The notes beneath the pieces are model-generated. The model saw only the letters and a list, made by a program, of their open reading frames with translations, was not told where the DNA came from and ran no database searches. From the NCBI GenBank assembly GCA_963760615.1, contig CAVXDX010000012.1, forward strand, positions 8,308 through 72,307: 64,000 bases of DNA, read 5' to 3'. Origin of the DNA: an uncultured Candidatus Micrarchaeota archaeon. GTDB lineage: Archaea; Micrarchaeota; Micrarchaeia; Burarchaeales; Fermentimicrarchaeaceae. Below, piece after piece: positions 17,197 through 25,509 of this stretch (its first letter is position 1; every line of letters begins with the position of its first letter). A program made the position numbers and the translations under genes.

Positions 17197-18714
17197 TTGG
17201 AAGGCGGTTATTTCAGGTATGACAAGCTGCAGCCCAGAGAATACCAGCTCAGGATAGCTGAGAACGTTCTGAAAAAGGGCAATTCCCTAGTCATACTGCC
17301 AACCGGGCTGGGAAAAACCGCAATAGCACTGCTCGTTGCTGATAAATATCTCCAGCAGGGTAAGAGAGTGCTCTTCCTCGCACCAACAAGACCCCTGTGC
17401 GAGCAGCACAGGAAGAGCTTTGAGGAGCTTATGAAGCTCCCGAGTGAGGACATTCTGCTTATAACTGGCAAATTTGGGGCGGGGGAGAGGGAGGATTTGT
17501 GGAATACTGCAAAGGTTATTGTCGCAACCCCGCAGTGCGTGAAGAATGACTTGAAAAAAGGCAAAATGAAACTGGAATTCGGACTTGTTGTGCTTGACGA
17601 GGTGCACAGGGCAGTTGGCAATTATGCGTATACTTTCGTTGCAGAGGAGTGCAGGAAAGTTGGGCTTCACCTGCTCGGTCTGACTGCATCACCTGGAAGC
17701 TCCAAGGAGAAGATTGAGGAGATGAGCAGCCTTCTTGGAGTTAAGAATATAGAGATACGGGATGAGGCTGATGAAGATGTGAAGGAGTATGTCCAGCCTC
17801 TTGACATCCACTGGGAGACCGTTGATTTTCCAGCTGAGATGGATGAGGTGAGAAAGCTTCTGGAAGATGCAATGGAGGATAGGCTGGAGGTGATGAGGAA
17901 GTTCGGGTGGATAAATGCCAAGAGCTTCCGCTCCCTGGGGAAGAAGGTGCTCCTGCTGGCCAGGAGCAAAATTGAGAGGACTTCAGGAGGAGTAAAGTAT
18001 ATGGGTCTGTCGCAGTATGCCGCGCTGATGAATCTCACTCACGCGCACGAGCTGCTTGAGACTGAGGGCGCTTCAACTTTCCTGGAGTTTTTCAAGAGAA
18101 TGGAAGCCCGCGAGCAGAAGAGCAGGGCGGTTGTCAGAATATTGAAGGATTACAGGGTTGTGCAGGCTTTGGAGAAGGCTAGGCAGCTGAAGATTGACCA
18201 CCCGAAGCTGGACAAGCTGCGCCAGCTCATAGAGGGGAGGAAGGACAGGATATACATAATTTTCGTGCAATTCAGGGACCAGGTTAAGAAAGTGGTTGAG
18301 GAGCTAAACAAGATACCTGGAGTGAAGGCTGAGAGGTTTGTTGGAAAGCGTGATGGTGTAACACAGGAGGAGCAGAAGGATACTATAGAGAGGTTCAGGA
18401 ACAGGGAGTTCAACATACTTGTGGCAAGCTCTATAGGGGAGGAAGGGTTGGATATACCTGCCGTGGACTGCGTCATCTTCTACGAGCCAATACCGAGCGA
18501 GATAAGGAACATCCAGAGAAGAGGCAGGGCCGGGAGGACCAGAGCCGGGGAAGTGATAATACTCATAACAAAGGACACGCGGGATGAGGCGTACTACTGG
18601 GTTTCAAGAAGCAGGGAGAGGAAGATGAAGAGGATAGTAAAGGGAATGCAGAACAGGTTCGGAGGAGAAGTTAAAAAAGTAAAGGGGCAGAGCAGGCTAT
18701 CTGACTTCGGCTGA
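17197..18714 (+). CDS. hef: Hef/FANCM-like SF2 helicase without nuclease domain
   Basis: PREYQ, LPTGLGKT, DEVH, TAS, GEEGLDIP, QRRGRAGR; C-terminal PIP-like QSRLSDF; start TTG 17197 behind SD GGAGGTT. Confidence 0.88.
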   Translation: MEGGYFRYDKLQPREYQLRIAENVLKKGNSLVILPTGLGKTAIALLVADKYLQQGKRVLFLAPTRPLCEQHRKSFEELMKLPSEDILLITGKFGAGEREDLWNTAKVIVATPQCVKNDLKKGKMKLEFGLVVLDEVHRAVGNYAYTFVAEECRKVGLHLLGLTASPGSSKEKIEEMSSLLGVKNIEIRDEADEDVKEYVQPLDIHWETVDFPAEMDEVRKLLEDAMEDRLEVMRKFGWINAKSFRSLGKKVLLLARSKIERTSGGVKYMGLSQYAALMNLTHAHELLETEGASTFLEFFKRMEAREQKSRAVVRILKDYRVVQALEKARQLKIDHPKLDKLRQLIEGRKDRIYIIFVQFRDQVKKVVEELNKIPGVKAERFVGKRDGVTQEEQKDTIERFRNREFNILVASSIGEEGLDIPAVDCVIFYEPIPSEIRNIQRRGRAGRTRAGEVIILITKDTRDEAYYWVSRSRERKMKRIVKGMQNRFGGEVKKVKGQSRLSDFG

Positions 18715-18723
18715 GTTCAGGTA

Positions 18724-19026
18724 CTAAAAACTGATTTTCACTCCTAAGAGCATTAGGAGGAGTATAGTTGCCAGTCCCGGAAGACCGAATAATGCCACAG
18801 GCACTATGGTTGGCCATATGGGGATAGCTTGTAGGGATTGGATGTGCAAAGATGTCCCTATTATATTGAGTAGGAAGAGGCATACAACCCCCACTATGGA
18901 GTTGAGTATGATTGTTAGGAGCCACTTGAATCCCACTCTTGCCAGCTTGAAGAAAAGCACTATCCCAATTACTAAAAAGAATATGAATACCAATGAAGTG
19001 CAGATTAACGCAATGTCAAATGCCAT
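18724..19026 (-). CDS. BofA-like small membrane protein
   Basis: NSIVGVVCLFLLN...IPIWPTIVPVALFGLPG pattern. Confidence 0.65.
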   Translation of the reverse strand: MAFDIALICTSLVFIFFLVIGIVLFFKLARVGFKWLLTIILNSIVGVVCLFLLNIIGTSLHIQSLQAIPIWPTIVPVALFGLPGLATILLLMLLGVKISF

Positions 19027-19075
19027 AATACCACCTAGGAGTTATCTCAGATGGGGTTTAAAAGTTTGACGCATT

Positions 19076-19474
19076 CTATTCAGTTGTTCTGCCGTCAAAC
19101 TCCTCCGGGCTTGCAATTGCCTCTGCCTTTGTCTTCCTCACTACTTTGTCTTGGTGCTCGGGAGGGGAGTAAATGGTGTAGAGCTTGAGCTCCGAAGTTT
19201 TGGATGTATTGATCACGTTATGCTTTGCGCCCGCAGGGACTATTACTCCATCCCCATCCTTGACAGGGTATTCATTTCCGTCAATAACCACCTTTCCCTC
19301 TCCTGCTTCAAATCTGAAGAACTGATCCCTATCCTTGTGCACCTCCATGCCTATCTCTTCCATGGGCTTGAGGTTCATCAAGACCAGCTGGCTGTTCTTC
19401 CCGGTGTACAAAACTCTGCGGAAATCTGAGTTTTTCCTAGTCTCCTTTTCAAGAGCTGTTGCATACCCTTTCAT
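19076..19474 (-). CDS. Cupin-domain protein
   Basis: EIGMEVH...DQFFRFEAGEG and VPAGAKHNVIN; LYTIYSPPEH. Confidence 0.85.
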   Translation of the reverse strand: MKGYATALEKETRKNSDFRRVLYTGKNSQLVLMNLKPMEEIGMEVHKDRDQFFRFEAGEGKVVIDGNEYPVKDGDGVIVPAGAKHNVINTSKTSELKLYTIYSPPEHQDKVVRKTKAEAIASPEEFDGRTTE

Positions 19475-19617
19475 ATTCGTCACCTCTCAGTTACGATTTC
19501 AGTTTCAAGGTATATTAATATTGACTATATTCGAGTAAAGCTAGCTTGAATATTTAAAAGAGATACATACGCCAGTTTGGGACAGACTCTGTTTCTTTAG
19601 GTTTTATAAAGACAAAA

Positions 19618-19628
19618 AGGCATAATTT
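19618..19628 (+). promoter_or_regulatory. AGGCATAATTT promoter-proximal element
   Basis: 7 nt after TATA TTTATAAA, 4 nt before ATG 19633; recurs at 20528 and 23965. Confidence 0.65.
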
Positions 19629-19632
19629 AACC

Positions 19633-20505
19633 ATGCCAGAAAACGTCAAATTTACGGAAGAGCGAAACTCGGAAGAAAAGGTACCGAGAAGGGAGCACCT
19701 CCAGCCTATCAAGGAGATTATCCACCAATTACATAAAAAGAAATTTGTCGAGCCAAGTTCAGTGAAAGCTGTGCTGCTGTATATAGAAATGGATTGGGGG
19801 AGCGGTGAGCTGCAGAAATGGGCTGATGAGGTTGAACGGAAAAAAGAGAGACTAGAAAAAAAGTTTAAGGTAAATGAGAAGCTCACCACTGAGATAAAAA
19901 GCATAATTGAGAGAGTGGGCACAGGTGTTCTAAGCGAGGATGAAATGAAAGAGGCTGAGAGGAGATTCAAAGGAGCGAAATATGCGTGGAGCCGCTATTC
20001 CATTATCCCTCTTATTGTCAAGGGTGGGCAAACAGCAGGCCATATTGAGCTGCTTAGAACTGCCCCGTTATTGGATGAGGTAGCGAGTTACGGGATAAAA
20101 CTTCACGAGTCCGCCCATTTTATTCATCTTTTCATAGTTGAGAAGCGCCTTGAGAGCGGGGATATCAAAGACCCGATAATGAAAAGGCTTTATGAGTACA
20201 TGCACGGGAAATATAGCAACGAGATAATTGATGCCGCGGTGCGCGGCTATATCGGCCCGCGATATCAGGAGACCGTGGCGGAGGCTCTCATGTACTGCGT
20301 GCTGCACAAGGGCGAAACACCTGACAAGCACAGGGATTTCAGGGTGGCTGACGAATTCAGGCTGCTCGGACATGACGTCAAGGAGCTGGGAAACCTTTTC
20401 AAAAGCAACCCTGAGACATTCAGAAAGCTCGTGGAAAACCCCTCATGGTGGGTGGAAGCTGGCAGCGTTGAAAAACTTGTTGAAAAGTTGAAGGAACCGG
20501 GCTAG
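19633..20505 (+). CDS. Orphan protein with HExxH zincin metallopeptidase motif
   Basis: LHESAH and downstream ETVAEAL candidate third ligand; no signal peptide. Confidence 0.6.
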   Translation: MPENVKFTEERNSEEKVPRREHLQPIKEIIHQLHKKKFVEPSSVKAVLLYIEMDWGSGELQKWADEVERKKERLEKKFKVNEKLTTEIKSIIERVGTGVLSEDEMKEAERRFKGAKYAWSRYSIIPLIVKGGQTAGHIELLRTAPLLDEVASYGIKLHESAHFIHLFIVEKRLESGDIKDPIMKRLYEYMHGKYSNEIIDAAVRGYIGPRYQETVAEALMYCVLHKGETPDKHRDFRVADEFRLLGHDVKELGNLFKSNPETFRKLVENPSWWVEAGSVEKLVEKLKEPG

Positions 20506-20527
20506 TGACAATCTTAAAAAGGAGAAA

Positions 20528-20538
20528 AGGCATAATTT
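20528..20538 (+). promoter_or_regulatory. AGGCATAATTT promoter-proximal element
   Basis: 7 nt after CTTAAAAA, 5 nt before ATG 20544. Confidence 0.65.
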
Positions 20539-20543
20539 AGGAT

Positions 20544-21509
20544 ATGCCAGCATACAAGAAAGAGAAGGCGGAGGGCATATCAGAAAGCCACCCTGCTTCG
20601 AAAGTTGACGTCTTCCCAGACCACCTAAACACCAAGATTGGGGATTACAAAGTTCGCATAGACAAGGATGGGGTAAAAGCAAGGAAGGAAGTAAAGGACC
20701 TGACGGTTCAACTTGCGCGGATGGATTATGAACAGTGGTATTACCCGTCGTTAGGTCCGAATTTTGTAGATAAGAAAGAAATTAAGGTGCCTTCCATTGA
20801 TCTTGTCGTATCGTTCAGTTTTGAAGACCTATCCAGTATAGCCGAGTTGAAGCCTAATGAGCTTAAGGGATATCCTGAAAGGACCTCCCAAAATTGGATA
20901 AATGTGAACGTTTCTGCAAAATTCCTTATTGACGATAGGGAGATGGATATGAAAGGATTCACCAGGGGAGTTGTCAAGCATTCAATGCCTCGTTGGCTTA
21001 CTGACGCCAAGGAATCCAAGCTTCGTGATGCCATTATTCTTGATGATGATTTCCGCGGCAAGCTTGCCGGTGACATCAGGATGCTTGCCAGGAAGGTTGA
21101 CTGGATGCTGAAATTCGACCCAAATGCCTCTGTGTCATTCAAAGCGCTAATGGCTGCAAAGAAGGCGGGGATAGAAAACTTCGACAGAGAAGTCGAGAGT
21201 CTGACAATACAGGTTTTGGAAATATCAGAGAAATGCGATGTTTTCAAGAACCCGGACGCCCTGCTTCAACTGGCCGTTAAGGCAAGGGAACAGGAAAATG
21301 GCGAAGCCATAGTTCTTAAACTTGGCGTCGACCTTTTCATGGCAGCCCAATTCATCCGAGATGAAGCTAATAAGACGACTGACCCCGCTGCCAAGGCTTT
21401 CCGGGAAAACCAGGCAAAAAAACTGTATGCGCTTAGCCAGCTATTCCATGATTACGCTCTAAAGGACTTGAATGAAAAGAGAGACAAGAAGTCCAAGAAG
21501 GAGTCATAG
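20544..21509 (+). CDS. Hypothetical protein (orphan)
   Basis: 321-aa ORF with own promoter; beta-rich N-half, helical C-half; no motif recognised. Confidence 0.75.
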   Translation: MPAYKKEKAEGISESHPASKVDVFPDHLNTKIGDYKVRIDKDGVKARKEVKDLTVQLARMDYEQWYYPSLGPNFVDKKEIKVPSIDLVVSFSFEDLSSIAELKPNELKGYPERTSQNWINVNVSAKFLIDDREMDMKGFTRGVVKHSMPRWLTDAKESKLRDAIILDDDFRGKLAGDIRMLARKVDWMLKFDPNASVSFKALMAAKKAGIENFDREVESLTIQVLEISEKCDVFKNPDALLQLAVKAREQENGEAIVLKLGVDLFMAAQFIRDEANKTTDPAAKAFRENQAKKLYALSQLFHDYALKDLNEKRDKKSKKES

Positions 21510-21561
21510 ACGTTTTTCTGACATTTCTGAAATCATCTAGGCTTTCTTCTGGTTGAGGTAA

Positions 21562-21577
21562 TGTAACTATGGTTACA
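21562..21577. promoter_or_regulatory. Palindrome TGTAAC-TATG-GTTACA (candidate operator)
   Basis: Inverted repeat upstream of the 21642 promoter; same arms at 23927 and 27723. Confidence 0.65.
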
Positions 21578-21641
21578 CAAACTACATGGAAAGGAAGTCA
21601 GTTTCTTTATGGTTTATAAGCTTAAAACGAGCAATTTTAGC

Positions 21642-22943
21642 ATGCCAGAAGCGCACAAGAAAGCAGTCTATACGCAGTCCTTGATAGACAACCCTAAGCT
21701 TTCAGAAGACAAGGTAACCGGTGAGTTCAAGGGATTCCCACTAGAATACAGGAACGGCGTGATATACCTAAGCAAGGAATACCACCACATACATGCAATT
21801 ATAGAGTGGTGGGATGAGGGAACGAAGGATTTTATCAAGAGACCGGTGGTATTCGATTCAGTCAAGGTTACTGCGGAATTCAGGGGGAAGGAATTCGCAC
21901 ATGGATTCTACGGGGAGGATATAACAATTGACTGCGGTTACGCCACTGCGGAATTCAAGCTTGACGGGAAGAAGTACAAGGTGGATTACGGCATATTTGA
22001 AGGCGACAATTCTAGTTGGTATCTGAACTACTACTCGGACTTCGACAATGACAAGAAAAGACTGTATTTCATGCGTCATTTCAACAGCAGAGTCATGGAT
22101 GATTTCGTCCCATTCAGGGACCATGGGCTTGTGGATGTCCTCAGGTTTGACAAGCATGTTGCTCCGCTCTTCGAAATTGAGCTGGAAACAAGAAAGAAAA
22201 AGCATGAACTGGTTGAAGACTTGAAGCTGGAGGCGCAACAGATTGGCAGGCAATACGACATAGAAAGAAACCCCCTTCCTCTGCAGCCGATATTCAAGAG
22301 GGCCAAGGAAGCAGGGGTGGTTGATAAACTCATAGGCGGACTGAGGAGGTGGGCCATGGACAGAAGAGAGCACATGTCAGATTGGGGAGAGGAGACGAGG
22401 TGGGTTTCGATTGAAGAGATTGCAAGCGGAAGGAGAAGGGAGAGCTTTGAGGACTTGGCAAGGAGGACTCAGGCAGAGAGGCTTGACAAGATAGCAGATG
22501 CGCTTCAGAAGTTCAACCAGAAACCCACTAAACAGCAGGAGAAGGAATCTGCGGAATGGCTTGCCTTCGACAATGCGTTGAAGAAGGTTGATGGAATGAT
22601 GGCTGAGGAAAAGGACTGGAGCAGGGATACTGGTAAATTTGCCGCTCGTGTCATTGAGGAGATAAAGCCCATATGCGAGCCGAGAAAGTTTGCGGAAACC
22701 CTGAAAAGACTCATGGAGTTCAAGAAGGATGATGGAGTGGTTGAGCAACTCTCTGCACTTTACAGCCCTATGTATTTCAGGAACTTCATCAGAATGATGG
22801 GTGGGGATATCAGCAATGAGGAACTTGAGGAGCTGTTCGGAAAGGGAAAGGAGCGCCTGGGAGAGTATGTGAGAGGCGTGGCTGATGAGACCAAGGGGAG
22901 GGAGCTTCTTCTTTTGAGCGAGGAGATTCTGAAGAGATGCTGA
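21642..22943 (+). CDS. Hypothetical protein (orphan)
   Basis: Long ORF; start MPEAHKK chosen from TATA (21613) geometry; no motif recognised. Confidence 0.75.
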   Translation: MPEAHKKAVYTQSLIDNPKLSEDKVTGEFKGFPLEYRNGVIYLSKEYHHIHAIIEWWDEGTKDFIKRPVVFDSVKVTAEFRGKEFAHGFYGEDITIDCGYATAEFKLDGKKYKVDYGIFEGDNSSWYLNYYSDFDNDKKRLYFMRHFNSRVMDDFVPFRDHGLVDVLRFDKHVAPLFEIELETRKKKHELVEDLKLEAQQIGRQYDIERNPLPLQPIFKRAKEAGVVDKLIGGLRRWAMDRREHMSDWGEETRWVSIEEIASGRRRESFEDLARRTQAERLDKIADALQKFNQKPTKQQEKESAEWLAFDNALKKVDGMMAEEKDWSRDTGKFAARVIEEIKPICEPRKFAETLKRLMEFKKDDGVVEQLSALYSPMYFRNFIRMMGGDISNEELEELFGKGKERLGEYVRGVADETKGRELLLLSEEILKRC

Positions 22944-23064
22944 ACAGCCAGCACACGGGCTCCTGACAGGAAGTTTGGGAGGGGGCAGCAGACGATTAGC
23001 GGAAAGTTACCCCTTGCCAATGTTTTTAAACGACAAACCTAGTATCAATACAGAGGCGGGGTAA

Positions 23065-23511
23065 TTGGATGTTCTTTTAGATACAAATGTCTACCTGGCG
23101 CATATAAAAGGTGAAATGCAGGGCTCTCATGCAAAAATTATACTGGAAAGGGTGGCAGCAGGGGAGCTTGCCCTTTGCTACAACGGCATAATCCGGATGG
23201 AAATAGAGAGAAAGTATGGGTATTACCTAGAACCGTTTTGCGCCATACTCGAAGAGCTGAGAAAATTAGGCAGAGTTGTGGATGTTGAAATCACAAATGA
23301 GATGAGTGAAAAGGCAATACAACTCGATAGGAAGCTGATAAAATACAGAAGAGGAAAGGAAGAAAGATTCGGAAAGATTGATTGCTTGCTGATACTTCTT
23401 GCAAAGAAACATGGATGCATGCTTGTGACTATTGAGAAAGAATTAATTGAAGCCGCAAGAGAAGAGGGAGTCAAGGCAGTCAGTCCAATGGATCTAGCGA
23501 TGAGTTTCTAG
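23065..23511 (+). CDS. PIN-domain (VapC-like) ribonuclease toxin
   Basis: VLLDTNV, IRMEIE, GKIDCLLILLA, LVTIEKEL. Confidence 0.82.
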   Translation: MDVLLDTNVYLAHIKGEMQGSHAKIILERVAAGELALCYNGIIRMEIERKYGYYLEPFCAILEELRKLGRVVDVEITNEMSEKAIQLDRKLIKYRRGKEERFGKIDCLLILLAKKHGCMLVTIEKELIEAAREEGVKAVSPMDLAMSF

Positions 23512-23823
23512 GTTCGCTTCCTTTATGAGCATGCCCAGAGCTTTACGTTCATTGTTATCCGCCCTCTTTAGAAAATCTTTCCACAACGATTTTCTGGCTG
23601 CCCTTCCTAGTTTTGCTGCGCTCTTTGCTCTATCTCGTTTAACACTCCCGAAAGTCTCCTCAATAATCTTTAATGCCCTTTGTCTTAAAAGTTCAGTCTT
23701 TCCTAATTTACTCATATCTTTTACGGCCTCACTTCTAGAGGTATAGTATCCTTCTTTAACCAGAATATCTATCTCCTCAACGTCTTTTACTGCATACCGA
23801 ACTGGTACGACAATGGATTTCAT
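23494..23823 (-). CDS. Ribbon-helix-helix (CopG/VapB-like) protein
   Basis: IVVPVRY..KDVEEIDILVKEGYYTSRSEAVKD; convergent with the PIN gene. Confidence 0.8.
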   Translation of the reverse strand: MKSIVVPVRYAVKDVEEIDILVKEGYYTSRSEAVKDMSKLGKTELLRQRALKIIEETFGSVKRDRAKSAAKLGRAARKSLWKDFLKRADNNERKALGMLIKEANLETHR

Positions 23824-23843
23824 TGTATACTAAAGCGTATACA
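23824..23843. promoter_or_regulatory. Inverted repeat TGTATAC-N6-GTATACA, likely RHH autoregulatory operator
   Basis: Lies between the TATA box and ATG of the RHH gene. Confidence 0.55.
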
Positions 23844-23926
23844 GTATTTAAAAGCTTTTGCTGTTCGTATTAAGCCGAATTGTTATTTCATCAAGATTGA
23901 TAGAATGACCAAGAGGGACGGGGGAA

Positions 23927-23942
23927 TGTAACCCGGGTTACA
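23927..23942. promoter_or_regulatory. Perfect palindrome TGTAACCCGGGTTACA
   Basis: 7 nt upstream of TATA CTTAAATA of the 23981 ORF. Confidence 0.65.
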
Positions 23943-23964
23943 AAGCAGGCTTAAATATCGGGAA

Positions 23965-23975
23965 AGGCATAATTT
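23965..23975 (+). promoter_or_regulatory. AGGCATAATTT promoter-proximal element
   Basis: 7 nt after CTTAAATA, 5 nt before ATG 23981. Confidence 0.65.
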
Positions 23976-23980
23976 AAGGC

Positions 23981-24148
23981 ATGACAGAGGCAAAAAAGCC
24001 GGCTGCCAGCATGAGAAAAGATATAGAGCGGCAGCAGGAGAAGATGAGGGAGCTGTTCGACGAGCTCAAAGAAACCGTGAGCAAACCCAAATGGGATGAG
24101 AAGCCGAAGGGGTTCTTCACCGCGCTTGAGAAAAAGCTCGGCAACTAA
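23981..24148 (+). CDS. 55-aa charged protein (absent from ORF track)
   Basis: MTEAKKPAASMRKDIERQQEKMRELFDELKETVSKPKWDEKPKGFFTALEKKLGN; has the shared promoter and palindrome. Confidence 0.6.
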   Translation: MTEAKKPAASMRKDIERQQEKMRELFDELKETVSKPKWDEKPKGFFTALEKKLGN

Positions 24149-24350
24149 CCTTAAGGCAACGGATATAATACACTTTGTCACGGCGGGTGAATCAAAATGT
24201 AACATTATACTGACTTCAGATGATGACTTTATTTCAGAAGGTACAAGATTTCTAAAGATGAAAAAAGAAGATGACAAGCTAAAGTTCTGTAAGCCTATCG
24301 AAAAGAATGTGCTAGATGCAGTTGATAATCTCACTAAAAAAGTTCCTTAA
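24147..24350 (+). pseudogene. C-terminal remnant of a PIN-domain gene
   Basis: LKATDIIHFVTAGESKCNIILTSDDDF matches the PIN C-terminal half; no N-terminal DTN motif or credible start. Confidence 0.6.
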
Positions 24351-24385
24351 AGTATATAGATTTTTGTGTATAATATAGCATCCGT

Positions 24386-24658
24386 GAATCACTCGAAACC
24401 GTCCGGTTTTGCCAGAAAAAGCAAAAAAAGCGGTAAAATCCGGCAGAACAGGCAGTATCTCTCCAACTTCTTCAAAAATCCTGAAAAGCCAGCCTAGACC
24501 GGAGAAGCCGGCTCAGGCGTAAGCCTCTTCCGGCTGCGCCAAAGCGCAGCAAGTGTTAGTTTGACCGTTTCACGATGAAGAGAAAAAGCAGGTGAAACGG
24601 TAACCGATGCTGCTCAGACGTAAGCATATTCCGAACTGCCTACCGTTTCGACCGATTC
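24386..24658 (+). ncRNA. Candidate structured ncRNA of unknown family
   Basis: Seven nested helices including 10-bp ACCGTTTCAC/GTGAAACGGT, AGGCAGT/ACTGCCT and GCTGCGC/GCGCAGC; A-rich loops; TATA-like sequence upstream. Confidence 0.5.
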
Positions 24659-24746
24659 TACAGACGTGTTTTATACCCTAGCAGAAATTTGAAAAAAAGC
24701 AGAAAGCTTACGCTATACTCGCAGTCAATGACTACTGCCCACCTCC

Positions 24747-24938
24747 CTACTTACTCAGAGCTTTTGCTATTACTATCAGAACTGGTGTTATGATTGTCAG
24801 TGCTACTGCAGCTGTTATAACTTGTAGTATCTGAGAACCTAGTGGATTACTGGTTGTTATTAGATAGAGTGCTGCTAGTACGATGATTGCAACTGTTCCA
24901 CTTGCAATTCCAATTCCAAATATCTTCAGTGAACTCAT
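24747..24938 (-). CDS. 63-aa two-helix hydrophobic protein
   Basis: SD GGAGGTGAA then ATG; MSSLKIFGIG...IITPVLIVIAKALSK. Confidence 0.65.
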   Translation of the reverse strand: MSSLKIFGIGIASGTVAIIVLAALYLITTSNPLGSQILQVITAAVALTIITPVLIVIAKALSK

Positions 24939-25267
24939 GCCTTTCACCTCCAGCCCTTACTCGCTAGAAAGGTTTTTAAATCGCCTCTTACAAAACTAGT
25001 AACAGTTATGTAAGAGGTGGTAGCGGGAGAGGTCATGGTTACACGTGTACCCTCCCCCATCTCTTTCTAGTTTTCAAAACTGCTATAATTTTGGAAGTAA
25101 AAGTTTTAATAACATATTGTCCAACAAATTCAGTCGCTCCGACGAGAAGATGCCGGAATGTGAGTTCTGCTGGTTCAATCGAAGTATTTTATACCCGAAT
25201 TGAAGATGCTGGTTTTTGTGCGAGTTGAGAGGCAGATATTTAAACCGAAAAATGCATAACTTATTCC

Positions 25268-25509
25268 GAGTGATGAGCCGGCAGCTTTCCCGCAAGGGAG
25301 GAAGTTCCACCCATCGCGAAGGCTGAGGGAACCTAAGGTTCGGACGGGAACAGAAACGAGACTGGCCGATTCAGATGAGGATGAAGCAATGAGATGGGTC
25401 GAGCCGGGTGAAACGCGCCCGTCGCAAAAGCAGGATGTGCGATGCAAGGCCTTTGAGCCGCTTAGTCCAATGCTGTCTAAAACAAAAGGTGGGCTATGGC
25501 TCGTCACTC
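25268..25509 (+). ncRNA. rnpB: RNase P RNA (type-M-like)
   Basis: 12-bp P1 GAGTGATGAGCC/GGCTCGTCACTC; GAGGAAGTTCCACCC and AACAAAAGGTGGGCTA (P4); P2 GGCAGC/GCTGTC; ACAGAAAC and GGTGAAAC conserved regions. Confidence 0.93.
25463..25509 (+). repeat. 47-bp direct repeat copy 1 (3' end of rnpB; att-like)
   Basis: TAGTCCAATGCTGTCTAAAACAAAAGGTGGGCTATGGCTCGTCACTC identical to 26703-26749. Confidence 0.95.

Follow-up and report, generated by a model that had tools for sequence, protein, structure and literature searches.

A genus-restricted, multicopy family of structured non-coding elements with two mutually exclusive conserved pairings in Candidatus Fermentimicrarchaeum

Orphan families of structured non-coding RNAs are known from comparative genomics, some of them multicopy, and one such family, HEARO, was later shown to be the omega-RNA of IscB. 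The Correia (CREE) elements of Neisseria are hairpin repeats of the MITE type with promoter or terminator signals, the attC sites of integrons are 57-141 bp long, have RYYYAAC/GTTRRRY cores and stand one after every cassette, and attenuator-type leaders consist of four segments, of which 1 pairs with 2 and 3 with 4, or else 2 with 3. DPANN archaea have tiny genomes, and we know of no lineage-specific non-coding RNA that has been described from them. The element considered here lies on the + strand at positions 24368-24678 of the window, which is the whole stretch of 64,000 nucleotides that was analysed, and it includes the stretch 24386-24658 that an earlier note had singled out as a highly structured RNA candidate. 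Judged by its sequence, it is one paralogue of a genus-restricted multicopy non-coding family with units of about 270-310 nt. The family is undescribed and confined to one genus of tiny Micrarchaeota archaea.

Like the orphan RNA families of the HEARO kind, the element has a length of a few hundred nucleotides, covarying helices, GNRA loops and conserved unpaired motifs, and it also shares with them the several copies per genome, a patchy and mobile-like distribution, and neighbours that reveal no function. In those families the sequence is preserved from genus to genus and a single stable fold is adopted, whereas the copies of this element are barely alignable in sequence, belong to a single genus, have two exclusive pairings, and lack an adjacent gene for a partner protein. 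As in attenuator leaders, one arm (P5b, the 3' arm of a helix termed P5) has two conserved partners that exclude each other, and U-runs follow the distal alternative, but unlike such leaders the element has no consistent downstream gene, leader peptide or ligand pocket. To our knowledge, hairpin-dependent termination is not established in archaea.

The element folds far better than expected by chance, as the earlier note had proposed, with a minimum free energy on the + strand of -90.9 kcal/mol against -71.1 +/- 5.2 kcal/mol in dinucleotide shuffles (z = -3.8). The minus strand of the same stretch folds equally well or better (z = -4.95), and among 16 copies the mean z is about -3.4 on each strand, with every copy beyond chance. 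That the RNA belongs to no recognisable family also holds: with the Rfam 15 covariance models, no family was found at gathering score, nor at E <= 10 (SRP RNA, RNase P, self-cleaving ribozymes, OLE, GOLLD, ROOL and HEARO included), where the best match had 20 bits against a threshold of 52. With no Rfam ribozyme match and nothing else pointing to a ribozyme, this suggestion of the earlier note finds no footing. A search of the literature brought up nothing on the element. The window does carry an archaeal RNase P RNA gene (rnpB), 600 nt downstream of the element, and an intron-bearing tRNA. A divergent SRP RNA was considered as well and rejected, as the genome has its real SRP RNA on contig C8.

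By BLAST the element appeared to be present only once in its own genome, with one 80%-identical copy and two short weak matches in sister genomes. The weak matches, when read, are diverged homologues with the same ends, and two further, much-diverged paralogues came to light when the source genome was searched for the 5' word GTATAATATA, which is invariant; the single-copy claim was thus overturned by reading the other GTATAATATA sites and by a covariance model. A search with a pattern of the two ends brought more copies from metagenomes and GTDB genomes. The covariance model, R1, was made from the 3' 120 nt of the element and has 7 matches in the source genome (G000), including one remnant at 25098-25196 of the window, and 4, 3, 2 and 2 matches in four of the five sister genomes, with none in the fifth. 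The element itself was the top-scoring copy of the genome search with 112.6 bits (E = 3.6e-24), a match by construction because this copy is in the seed alignment; ten copies outside the seed scored 26.8-103.7 bits. R1 had no match in four other genera of the same family (Fermentimicrarchaeaceae) and in 0 of 145 other genomes of the class, and among viral contigs, scanned twice, there was nothing or only chance matches, none of them matching R1. The RNA that had seemed unique is thus a multicopy family, with 2-7 diverged copies per genome in five of the six genomes of Ca. Fermentimicrarchaeum and about 18 copies in the genus. The RNA is dispensable: one genome of the genus lacks it, it was found in none of the other genera searched, and the intergenic regions with which it travels are variable. 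That a reduced genome of 1.1 Mb has up to seven diverged copies with the same helices and spacings points either to a real function or to an unusual mode of propagation.

The features of the element and its immediate surroundings are as follows.

24351-24358, + strand: TATA-like box AGTATATA with a putative promoter function, separated by 8 nt from the -10-type element downstream
24367-24377, + strand: 5' boundary motif TGTATAATATA, resembling the -10 element of the lineage, G[CT]ATAA[CT]
24386-24399, + strand: 5' arms of the closing helix P1, X1 GAATC (24386-90) and X2 TCGAAAC (24393-99), pairing with 24645-58
24403-24410, + strand: candidate P2 5' arm CCGGTTTT, with its partner GAAGCCGG at 24504-24511, from RNAalifold of G000 and G004
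24511-24526, + strand: motif M1, GCTCAGGCGTAAGC, with the hairpin AGGC-GNRA-GCCT; YCAGRCG stands at the matching place in other copies
24533-24550, + strand: hairpin GCTGCGC-CAAA-GCGCAGC, seen in the sequence
24564-24601, + strand: P5, a 10-bp helix (24564-73 / 24592-601) with an 18-nt loop (24574-91), supported by covariation
24607-24627, + strand: hairpin P6, ATGCT/AGCAT, variable
24612-24625, + strand: motif M2, GCTCAGACGTAAGC, in the P6 loop, its C[AC]GACG core nearly invariant across copies
24642-24658, + strand: 3' arms of P1, X2-prime ACCGTTTCGA (24642-51) and X1-prime GATTC (24654-58); in the alternative pairing X2-prime joins the P5 3' arm
24661-24667, + strand: motif M3, CAGACGT, conserved in all full copies
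24669-24678, + strand: 3' motif of the family, TTTTATACCC, conserved in all full copies
25098-25196, + strand: second 3' domain of the family in a decayed state, with another TTTTATACCC at its end (25187-96), R1 score 26.8 bits, E about 4e-4 to 3e-3

All copies follow one plan. At the 5' end there is the motif G[TC]ATAA[TA]A[TC]A, a promoter element of the GTATAATATA type (invariant as GTATAATATA in 11 copies, with the variants GCATAATACA, GCATAAAACA and GTATAAAAAG in others), followed after 5-6 nt by two A-rich arms, X1 and X2. The interior of 130-165 nt is variable and usually contains a CCGG hairpin and YCAGRCG (M1), often with another X after it. P5 then has an X-prime arm before and an X arm behind its 18-nt loop, the start of which is mostly CUCGGAGAG, and about 20 nt further on come the near-invariant C[AC]GACG (M2), two U-rich X-prime arms, CAGACGT (M3) and TTTTATACC, with UUUUAUACC as the 3' end of the plan in every copy. 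The element has this whole 3' series that defines R1, from the X-prime, 18-nt loop and X of P5 through C[AC]GACG and the two X-prime arms to CAGACGT and TTTTATACC. Beyond TTTTATACC, many copies carry one more X and a zone rich in T with additional X-prime words. Each copy has three repeats of the YCAGRCG motif at fixed places, and the 14-mer that had been noticed twice in the element, at 24511 and 24612, is indeed there. The conserved motifs are direct repeats, and the conservation runs directionally past the 3' motif. Copies that BLAST fails to connect can be aligned nearly without gaps over the stretch that runs from P5 to the end.

The X word differs among copies, even in one genome, being GAAAC in the element, AAAAC or UAAAC in the C3 and C8 paralogues and UAAAU in G001 and G002, but within any one copy the same word is used in all arms. 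Such words are repeated 6-10 times, in either orientation, and some of them lie downstream, outside the unit. As X1/X2, P5a, P5b and X2-prime all share the one copy-specific word, P5b can pair with P5a or with X2-prime.

P5, which the earlier note had reported as a perfect helix, is strongly supported by covariation. Its cells are paired in 88.9% of cases as compared to 69.6% in shuffles and 33-45% in slid controls, both sides have changed in seven of the ten pairs, and the covariation score is 0.44 versus 0.14, with none of 500 shuffles reaching as high; the loop is 17-19 nt long in 19 of 21 rows. The alternative helix, in which P5b is paired with the distal X2-prime (A6 columns 53-62 with 101-110), is 87.5% paired, and here both sides have changed in eight of the ten pairs. 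P5b thus covaries with both P5a and X2-prime, which indicates two mutually exclusive conserved folds. In addition, the first nucleotides of the P5 loop (CUCGGAGAG) can pair with the M2 region, through a core of 5 bp that is 80% paired, with 12 compensated base pairs in one copy and an exchange of G-C to U-A in another; in the element itself this pairing is weak. One copy has a T6 run inside the P5 loop, which speaks against a + strand transcript.

P1 is a two-part closing helix that joins the complementary 5' and 3' ends and is present in all full copies, and its two parts GAATC/GATTC (24386-90 / 24654-58) and TCGAAAC/GTTTCGA (24393-99 / 24645-51) are found in the element just as the earlier note had placed them. 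Compensatory changes are seen between G003 (AUUCA/UGAAU) and L021 (AUCCAG/CUGGAU), in the other part between G000 (UCGAAAC/GUUUCGA), G003 (GUGAAAC/GUUUCAC) and G001 (GUAAAU/AUUUAC), and between two 93%-identical copies, where U-A has become C-G and A.A has become G-C. The complementarity of P1 is not clearly copy-specific, as duplexes within a copy have -14.8 kcal/mol and those across copies -12.7 kcal/mol, a difference that is not significant.

The remaining helices are not conserved between subfamilies. The hairpins AGGC-GTAA-GCCT (24515-26), GCTGCGC-CAAA-GCGCAGC and ATGCT/AGCAT (24607-11 / 24623-27) of the earlier note are all present. The loop of the first is GUAA in G000, GAGA in L022 and GUGA in G004, in each case a GNRA loop. 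The second is invariant within its subfamily, so that it is uninformative with regard to covariation, and it is not recognisable in other subfamilies. The third, P6, has 6 bp in L022, 7 bp in G003 and 5 bp in G001, and is absent in L025. Candidate P2, in which a U.G pair has become C-G in G004 and L022, has weak support and pertains to a subfamily only. Other pairings that had been drawn do not survive the comparison, as the closest homologue has lost the GTTTTGCC/GGCAGAAC helix to a 10-nt deletion and AGGCAGT/ACTGCCT as well as CCGGA/TCCGG are broken in G004 and L022.

TATA-like boxes flank both ends, as had been noted. At the 5' end, the putative box AGTATATA (24351-58) is followed after 8 nt by the -10-type element GTATAAT at 24368-74 and then by about 7 nt to the predicted start. 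The same lineage-type element G[CT]ATAA[CT] precedes the start by 6-7 nt and follows a TATA box by 6-9 nt at rnpB, the SRP RNA gene and three leaderless cassette genes, and for comparison GGCATAATTTA is found 4-5 nt ahead of the leaderless ATGs at 19633, 20544 and 23981. This geometry (TATA box at 24351-58, 8 nt, GTATAAT, about 7 nt) suggests a transcription start at about 24382-24384, just ahead of P1 (24386). A TATA-like octamer at the expected distance is present in only 9 of 16 copies. The TATA boxes of rnpB, SRP RNA and tRNA genes are of a different type, TTTWAAAT. If GTATAATATA itself were the TATA box, the transcript would begin downstream of the P1 5' arm and would be unable to form P1. 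Archaeal RNA polymerase terminates at oligo-T, and by this general rule transcription likely stops at or after the U4 run at 24669-72, 10 nt past P1, which would be the 3' end. As a side observation, the core-promoter geometry is fixed in the window at 19603-19633, 20514-20544, 23951-23981 and 25237-25268, with leaderless cassette genes, rnpB and SRP RNA being alike in this respect.

We infer that the transcript is read from the + strand, and this is based on the promoter geometry, the asymmetry of A- and T-runs and the directional conserved motifs. On the + strand of 11 copies, 36 runs of A5 or longer are found versus 2 runs of T5 or longer, and the minus strand is consequently full of oligo-T terminators. 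Folding z-scores, SCI and wobble counts give no preference for one of the strands, and the claim that G-U pairs favour the + strand did not hold up, with 5 G.U versus 6 A.C cells in P5 over 21 copies and a P1 duplex that is more stable on the minus strand.

It is on balance an even call that the family consists of structured RNAs some 290 nt long, in which YCAGRCG motifs are repeated and two alternative folds are conserved, and this is the best explanation at hand; each unit is then probably an independent gene for a structured RNA that is read from the + strand. Transcription would begin at the lineage-type promoter and end at or after the U-run, P1 would close the complementary ends of the RNA, and the body would hold P5. 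P5b may exchange P5a for X2-prime, which would make the RNA a conformational switch. Two of the YCAGRCG motifs, in the P6 loop and in the 3' tail, are predicted to be single-stranded, and together with A-rich linkers they might, speculatively, form a scaffold or a decoy for a protein that reads the motif. A role as protein scaffold, decoy or switch is a guess. If the family acts as RNA, it would be a natural example of two conserved alternative folds that arise from a copy-specific word, and if it acts as DNA, it may explain the movement of accessory cassettes in genomes that have no obvious recombinases. For now its importance is moderate, given the range of one genus and the absence from one genome of that genus.

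A less probable but serious alternative is that the family is a foldback or mobile DNA repeat of the MITE-like or REPIN-like kind, in which hairpins matter in the DNA, for example in single-stranded intermediates or as recombination substrates, and the apparent covariation is due to selection for transposability or to a correction, by template switching or gene conversion, of inverted and direct repeats against one another. The earlier note had already named a mobile-element RNA or MITE-like DNA, and the part of this that stands comprises the inverted-repeat ends, the truncated copies and the scattered positions. The ends are imperfect inverted repeats of about 35-45 bp, GGTATAA...TTATACC plus the X/X-prime arms, truncated 5' and 3' fragments of the family exist, and the copies lie at different positions in different species, in variable islands. 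A multicopy family that is restricted to a genus and missing from one of its genomes is what would be expected from a mobile repeat, as is folding without strand preference, and the direct X repeats in two copies are identical in 13 of 13 positions, which goes beyond the need of pairing and fits DNA-level copying. The part that does not stand is target duplication, near-identical copies and a link to a transposase: 17 copies have no direct repeat in their flanks, identity reaches about 80-87% in the closest pairs of any one genome, and no Y1 transposase and no recurring neighbour gene were found, TnpB elements being abundant but having unrelated ends. In addition, the arm words differ among copies of the same genome, so that there can be no single transposase site, and the gapless 3' domain, the directional motifs and the asymmetry of A- and T-runs are unexpected for decaying DNA repeats, as is a conservation that extends past the right "end". 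In the same way, the element resembles the Correia elements in being non-coding, multicopy and intergenic, with inverted-repeat ends that are promoter-like and folding into long hairpins, but differs from them by the lack of target duplication and near-identical copies, by its copy-specific arm words and gapless 3' domain, and by the conservation past the right end.

Specific mobile systems were also considered. Hairpin ends of the IS200/IS605 type were rejected, since no IS200/IS605 Y1 transposase was found in G000-G005. An omega-RNA or reRNA of TnpB was rejected as well, because no tnpB is located beside the element and the right ends of the local TnpB elements (...CATGTCAC) have no similarity to it. 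TnpB-like (PF07282) genes number 6-14 per genome of about 1 Mb in G000-G005. A comparison with empty sites failed to define the DNA ends of the C3 and C8 paralogues, whose flanks have no conserved counterpart in the sister genomes.

Integron attC sites share with the element inverted repeats that are variable in sequence and conserved in structure, short motifs at the ends, a location in cassette-rich regions and strand-specific folding. In contrast to attC sites, the element is about 300 bp long, its arms of the GTGAAAC/GTTTCAC type differ from the cores, and a six-gene island contains only one or two units. It is a rather doubtful idea that the paralogues form a new, two-state class of archaeal structured RNA. 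A private X word in at least four interchangeable arms would let each of them toggle between a closed fold (P1 and P5) and a two-hairpin fold, and each would present three YCAGRCG protein-binding sites, serving as a decoy or scaffold that can be switched and spreading together with accessory islands. In a DNA-level version of the same idea, single-stranded DNA with this fold would be a structure-specific recombination site, like attC but giant, and would underlie the cassette arrays without recombinase that these genomes have at RNA genes.

It is unlikely that the element is a DNA control region, either with convergent promoter-like modules (a TATA box or -10 element plus A-rich X boxes) of which the inverted right copy would be a T-rich terminator, or as an iteron- or origin-like array for protein binding. 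The reverse complement of the right end does mirror the promoter module of the left end, the X words recur in both orientations as described, and one paralogue lies directly upstream of an Orc1/Cdc6-like gene. In several copies, however, the mirrored module has an oligo-T run no more than about 10-15 nt behind it on the minus strand, a variation of the X words among the copies of one genome does not suit a binding array, no cognate binding protein is encoded nearby, and only one of the seven copies in G000 is beside an Orc1/Cdc6 gene, these genes being on contigs other than that of the element. The nested and pseudoknotted complementarity with its compensatory changes also fits a folded single strand better than a control region. 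A chromosomal origin with ORB repeats beside orc1/cdc6 was rejected, as the Cdc6_C matches are on contigs C3 and C8 and do not adjoin the element. The paralogue in question (C8:57815-58090, in locus L077, G000:C8:56314-59324) is located between a Shedu (SduA_C) defence gene and the Orc1/Cdc6-like AAA+ gene and is the only copy beside an initiator-like gene.

The earlier note had considered an RNA antitoxin. That the element would serve the adjacent PIN/RHH toxin-antitoxin remnants in this way, or regulate them otherwise, is very improbable: a PIN remnant (24096-24350) does precede it closely, and an intact PIN gene and an RHH gene are in the vicinity, but other copies have unrelated neighbours without a recurrent toxin, the closest homologues are beside a Schlafen-like helicase or beside rnpB only, and neither tandem repeats of the type III kind nor the constant toxin linkage of type I/III systems is found. 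The 37-aa basic ORF (24384-24497) is open in this copy, but as a real small gene it can practically be dismissed, because deletions inside it, of 10 nt in G004 and of 8 nt in L022, interrupt the frame, which is not conserved in other copies.

Returning to the family as probable RNA genes, its genomic neighbourhoods are diverse. Around 12 copies, ORFs were clustered all-against-all for a partner protein, and no recurring family was found. Neighbours of the other copies are a Schlafen-like helicase, GluRS, D-aminoacyl-tRNA deacylase, a tRNA gene, the Shedu/Orc1-like pair and a glycosyltransferase, which are unrelated to each other. The element is directly upstream of rnpB only in G000, G001 and one metagenome contig, and an obligate linkage to rnpB was rejected for this reason. 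In G004 and G002 the island that carries the element is missing, and the cupin-like gene abuts the rnpB promoter there. This island (19559-25230 of the window, 5.7 kb) holds leaderless cassette genes, PIN/RHH genes and the element, and it lies between the rnpB promoter and the conserved flank with the cupin-like gene (18188-19558, 84% identical to G004). Downstream of the element in G004 and G002, a small and very basic Cys-bearing protein of 71-119 aa without a Pfam match is encoded (L026:3256-3468 and L025:4780-5136), which has its own TATA box and leaderless start; used as a query, it was not found in the other four genomes of the genus (G000, G001 and G003 included).

Next to the element, the decayed second 3' domain sits just upstream of the rnpB promoter. 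The motif TTTTATACCC has only two exact occurrences in the window, which bracket 508 bp (24669-25196), and it looks like 24669-25196 is an insertion into the 3' end of the element. The 508-bp insert contains a membrane ORF of 66 aa (24747-24947, minus strand) and the decayed domain. One locus that was brought up by the pattern, L016:3118-3415 on metagenome contig ODNI01001434.1, is a chance match unrelated to the family and an apparent CRISPR array with a repeat of about 36 nt beginning with ATTATACCCTTGAGAGAGATAATAGGG. A short variant in G002 (L103:1440-1640, G002:C1:635.5k) has no 5' motif and contains three identical 13-nt X words about 90 nt apart; it begins right after a stop codon and stops 120 nt short of an intron-bearing tRNA gene.
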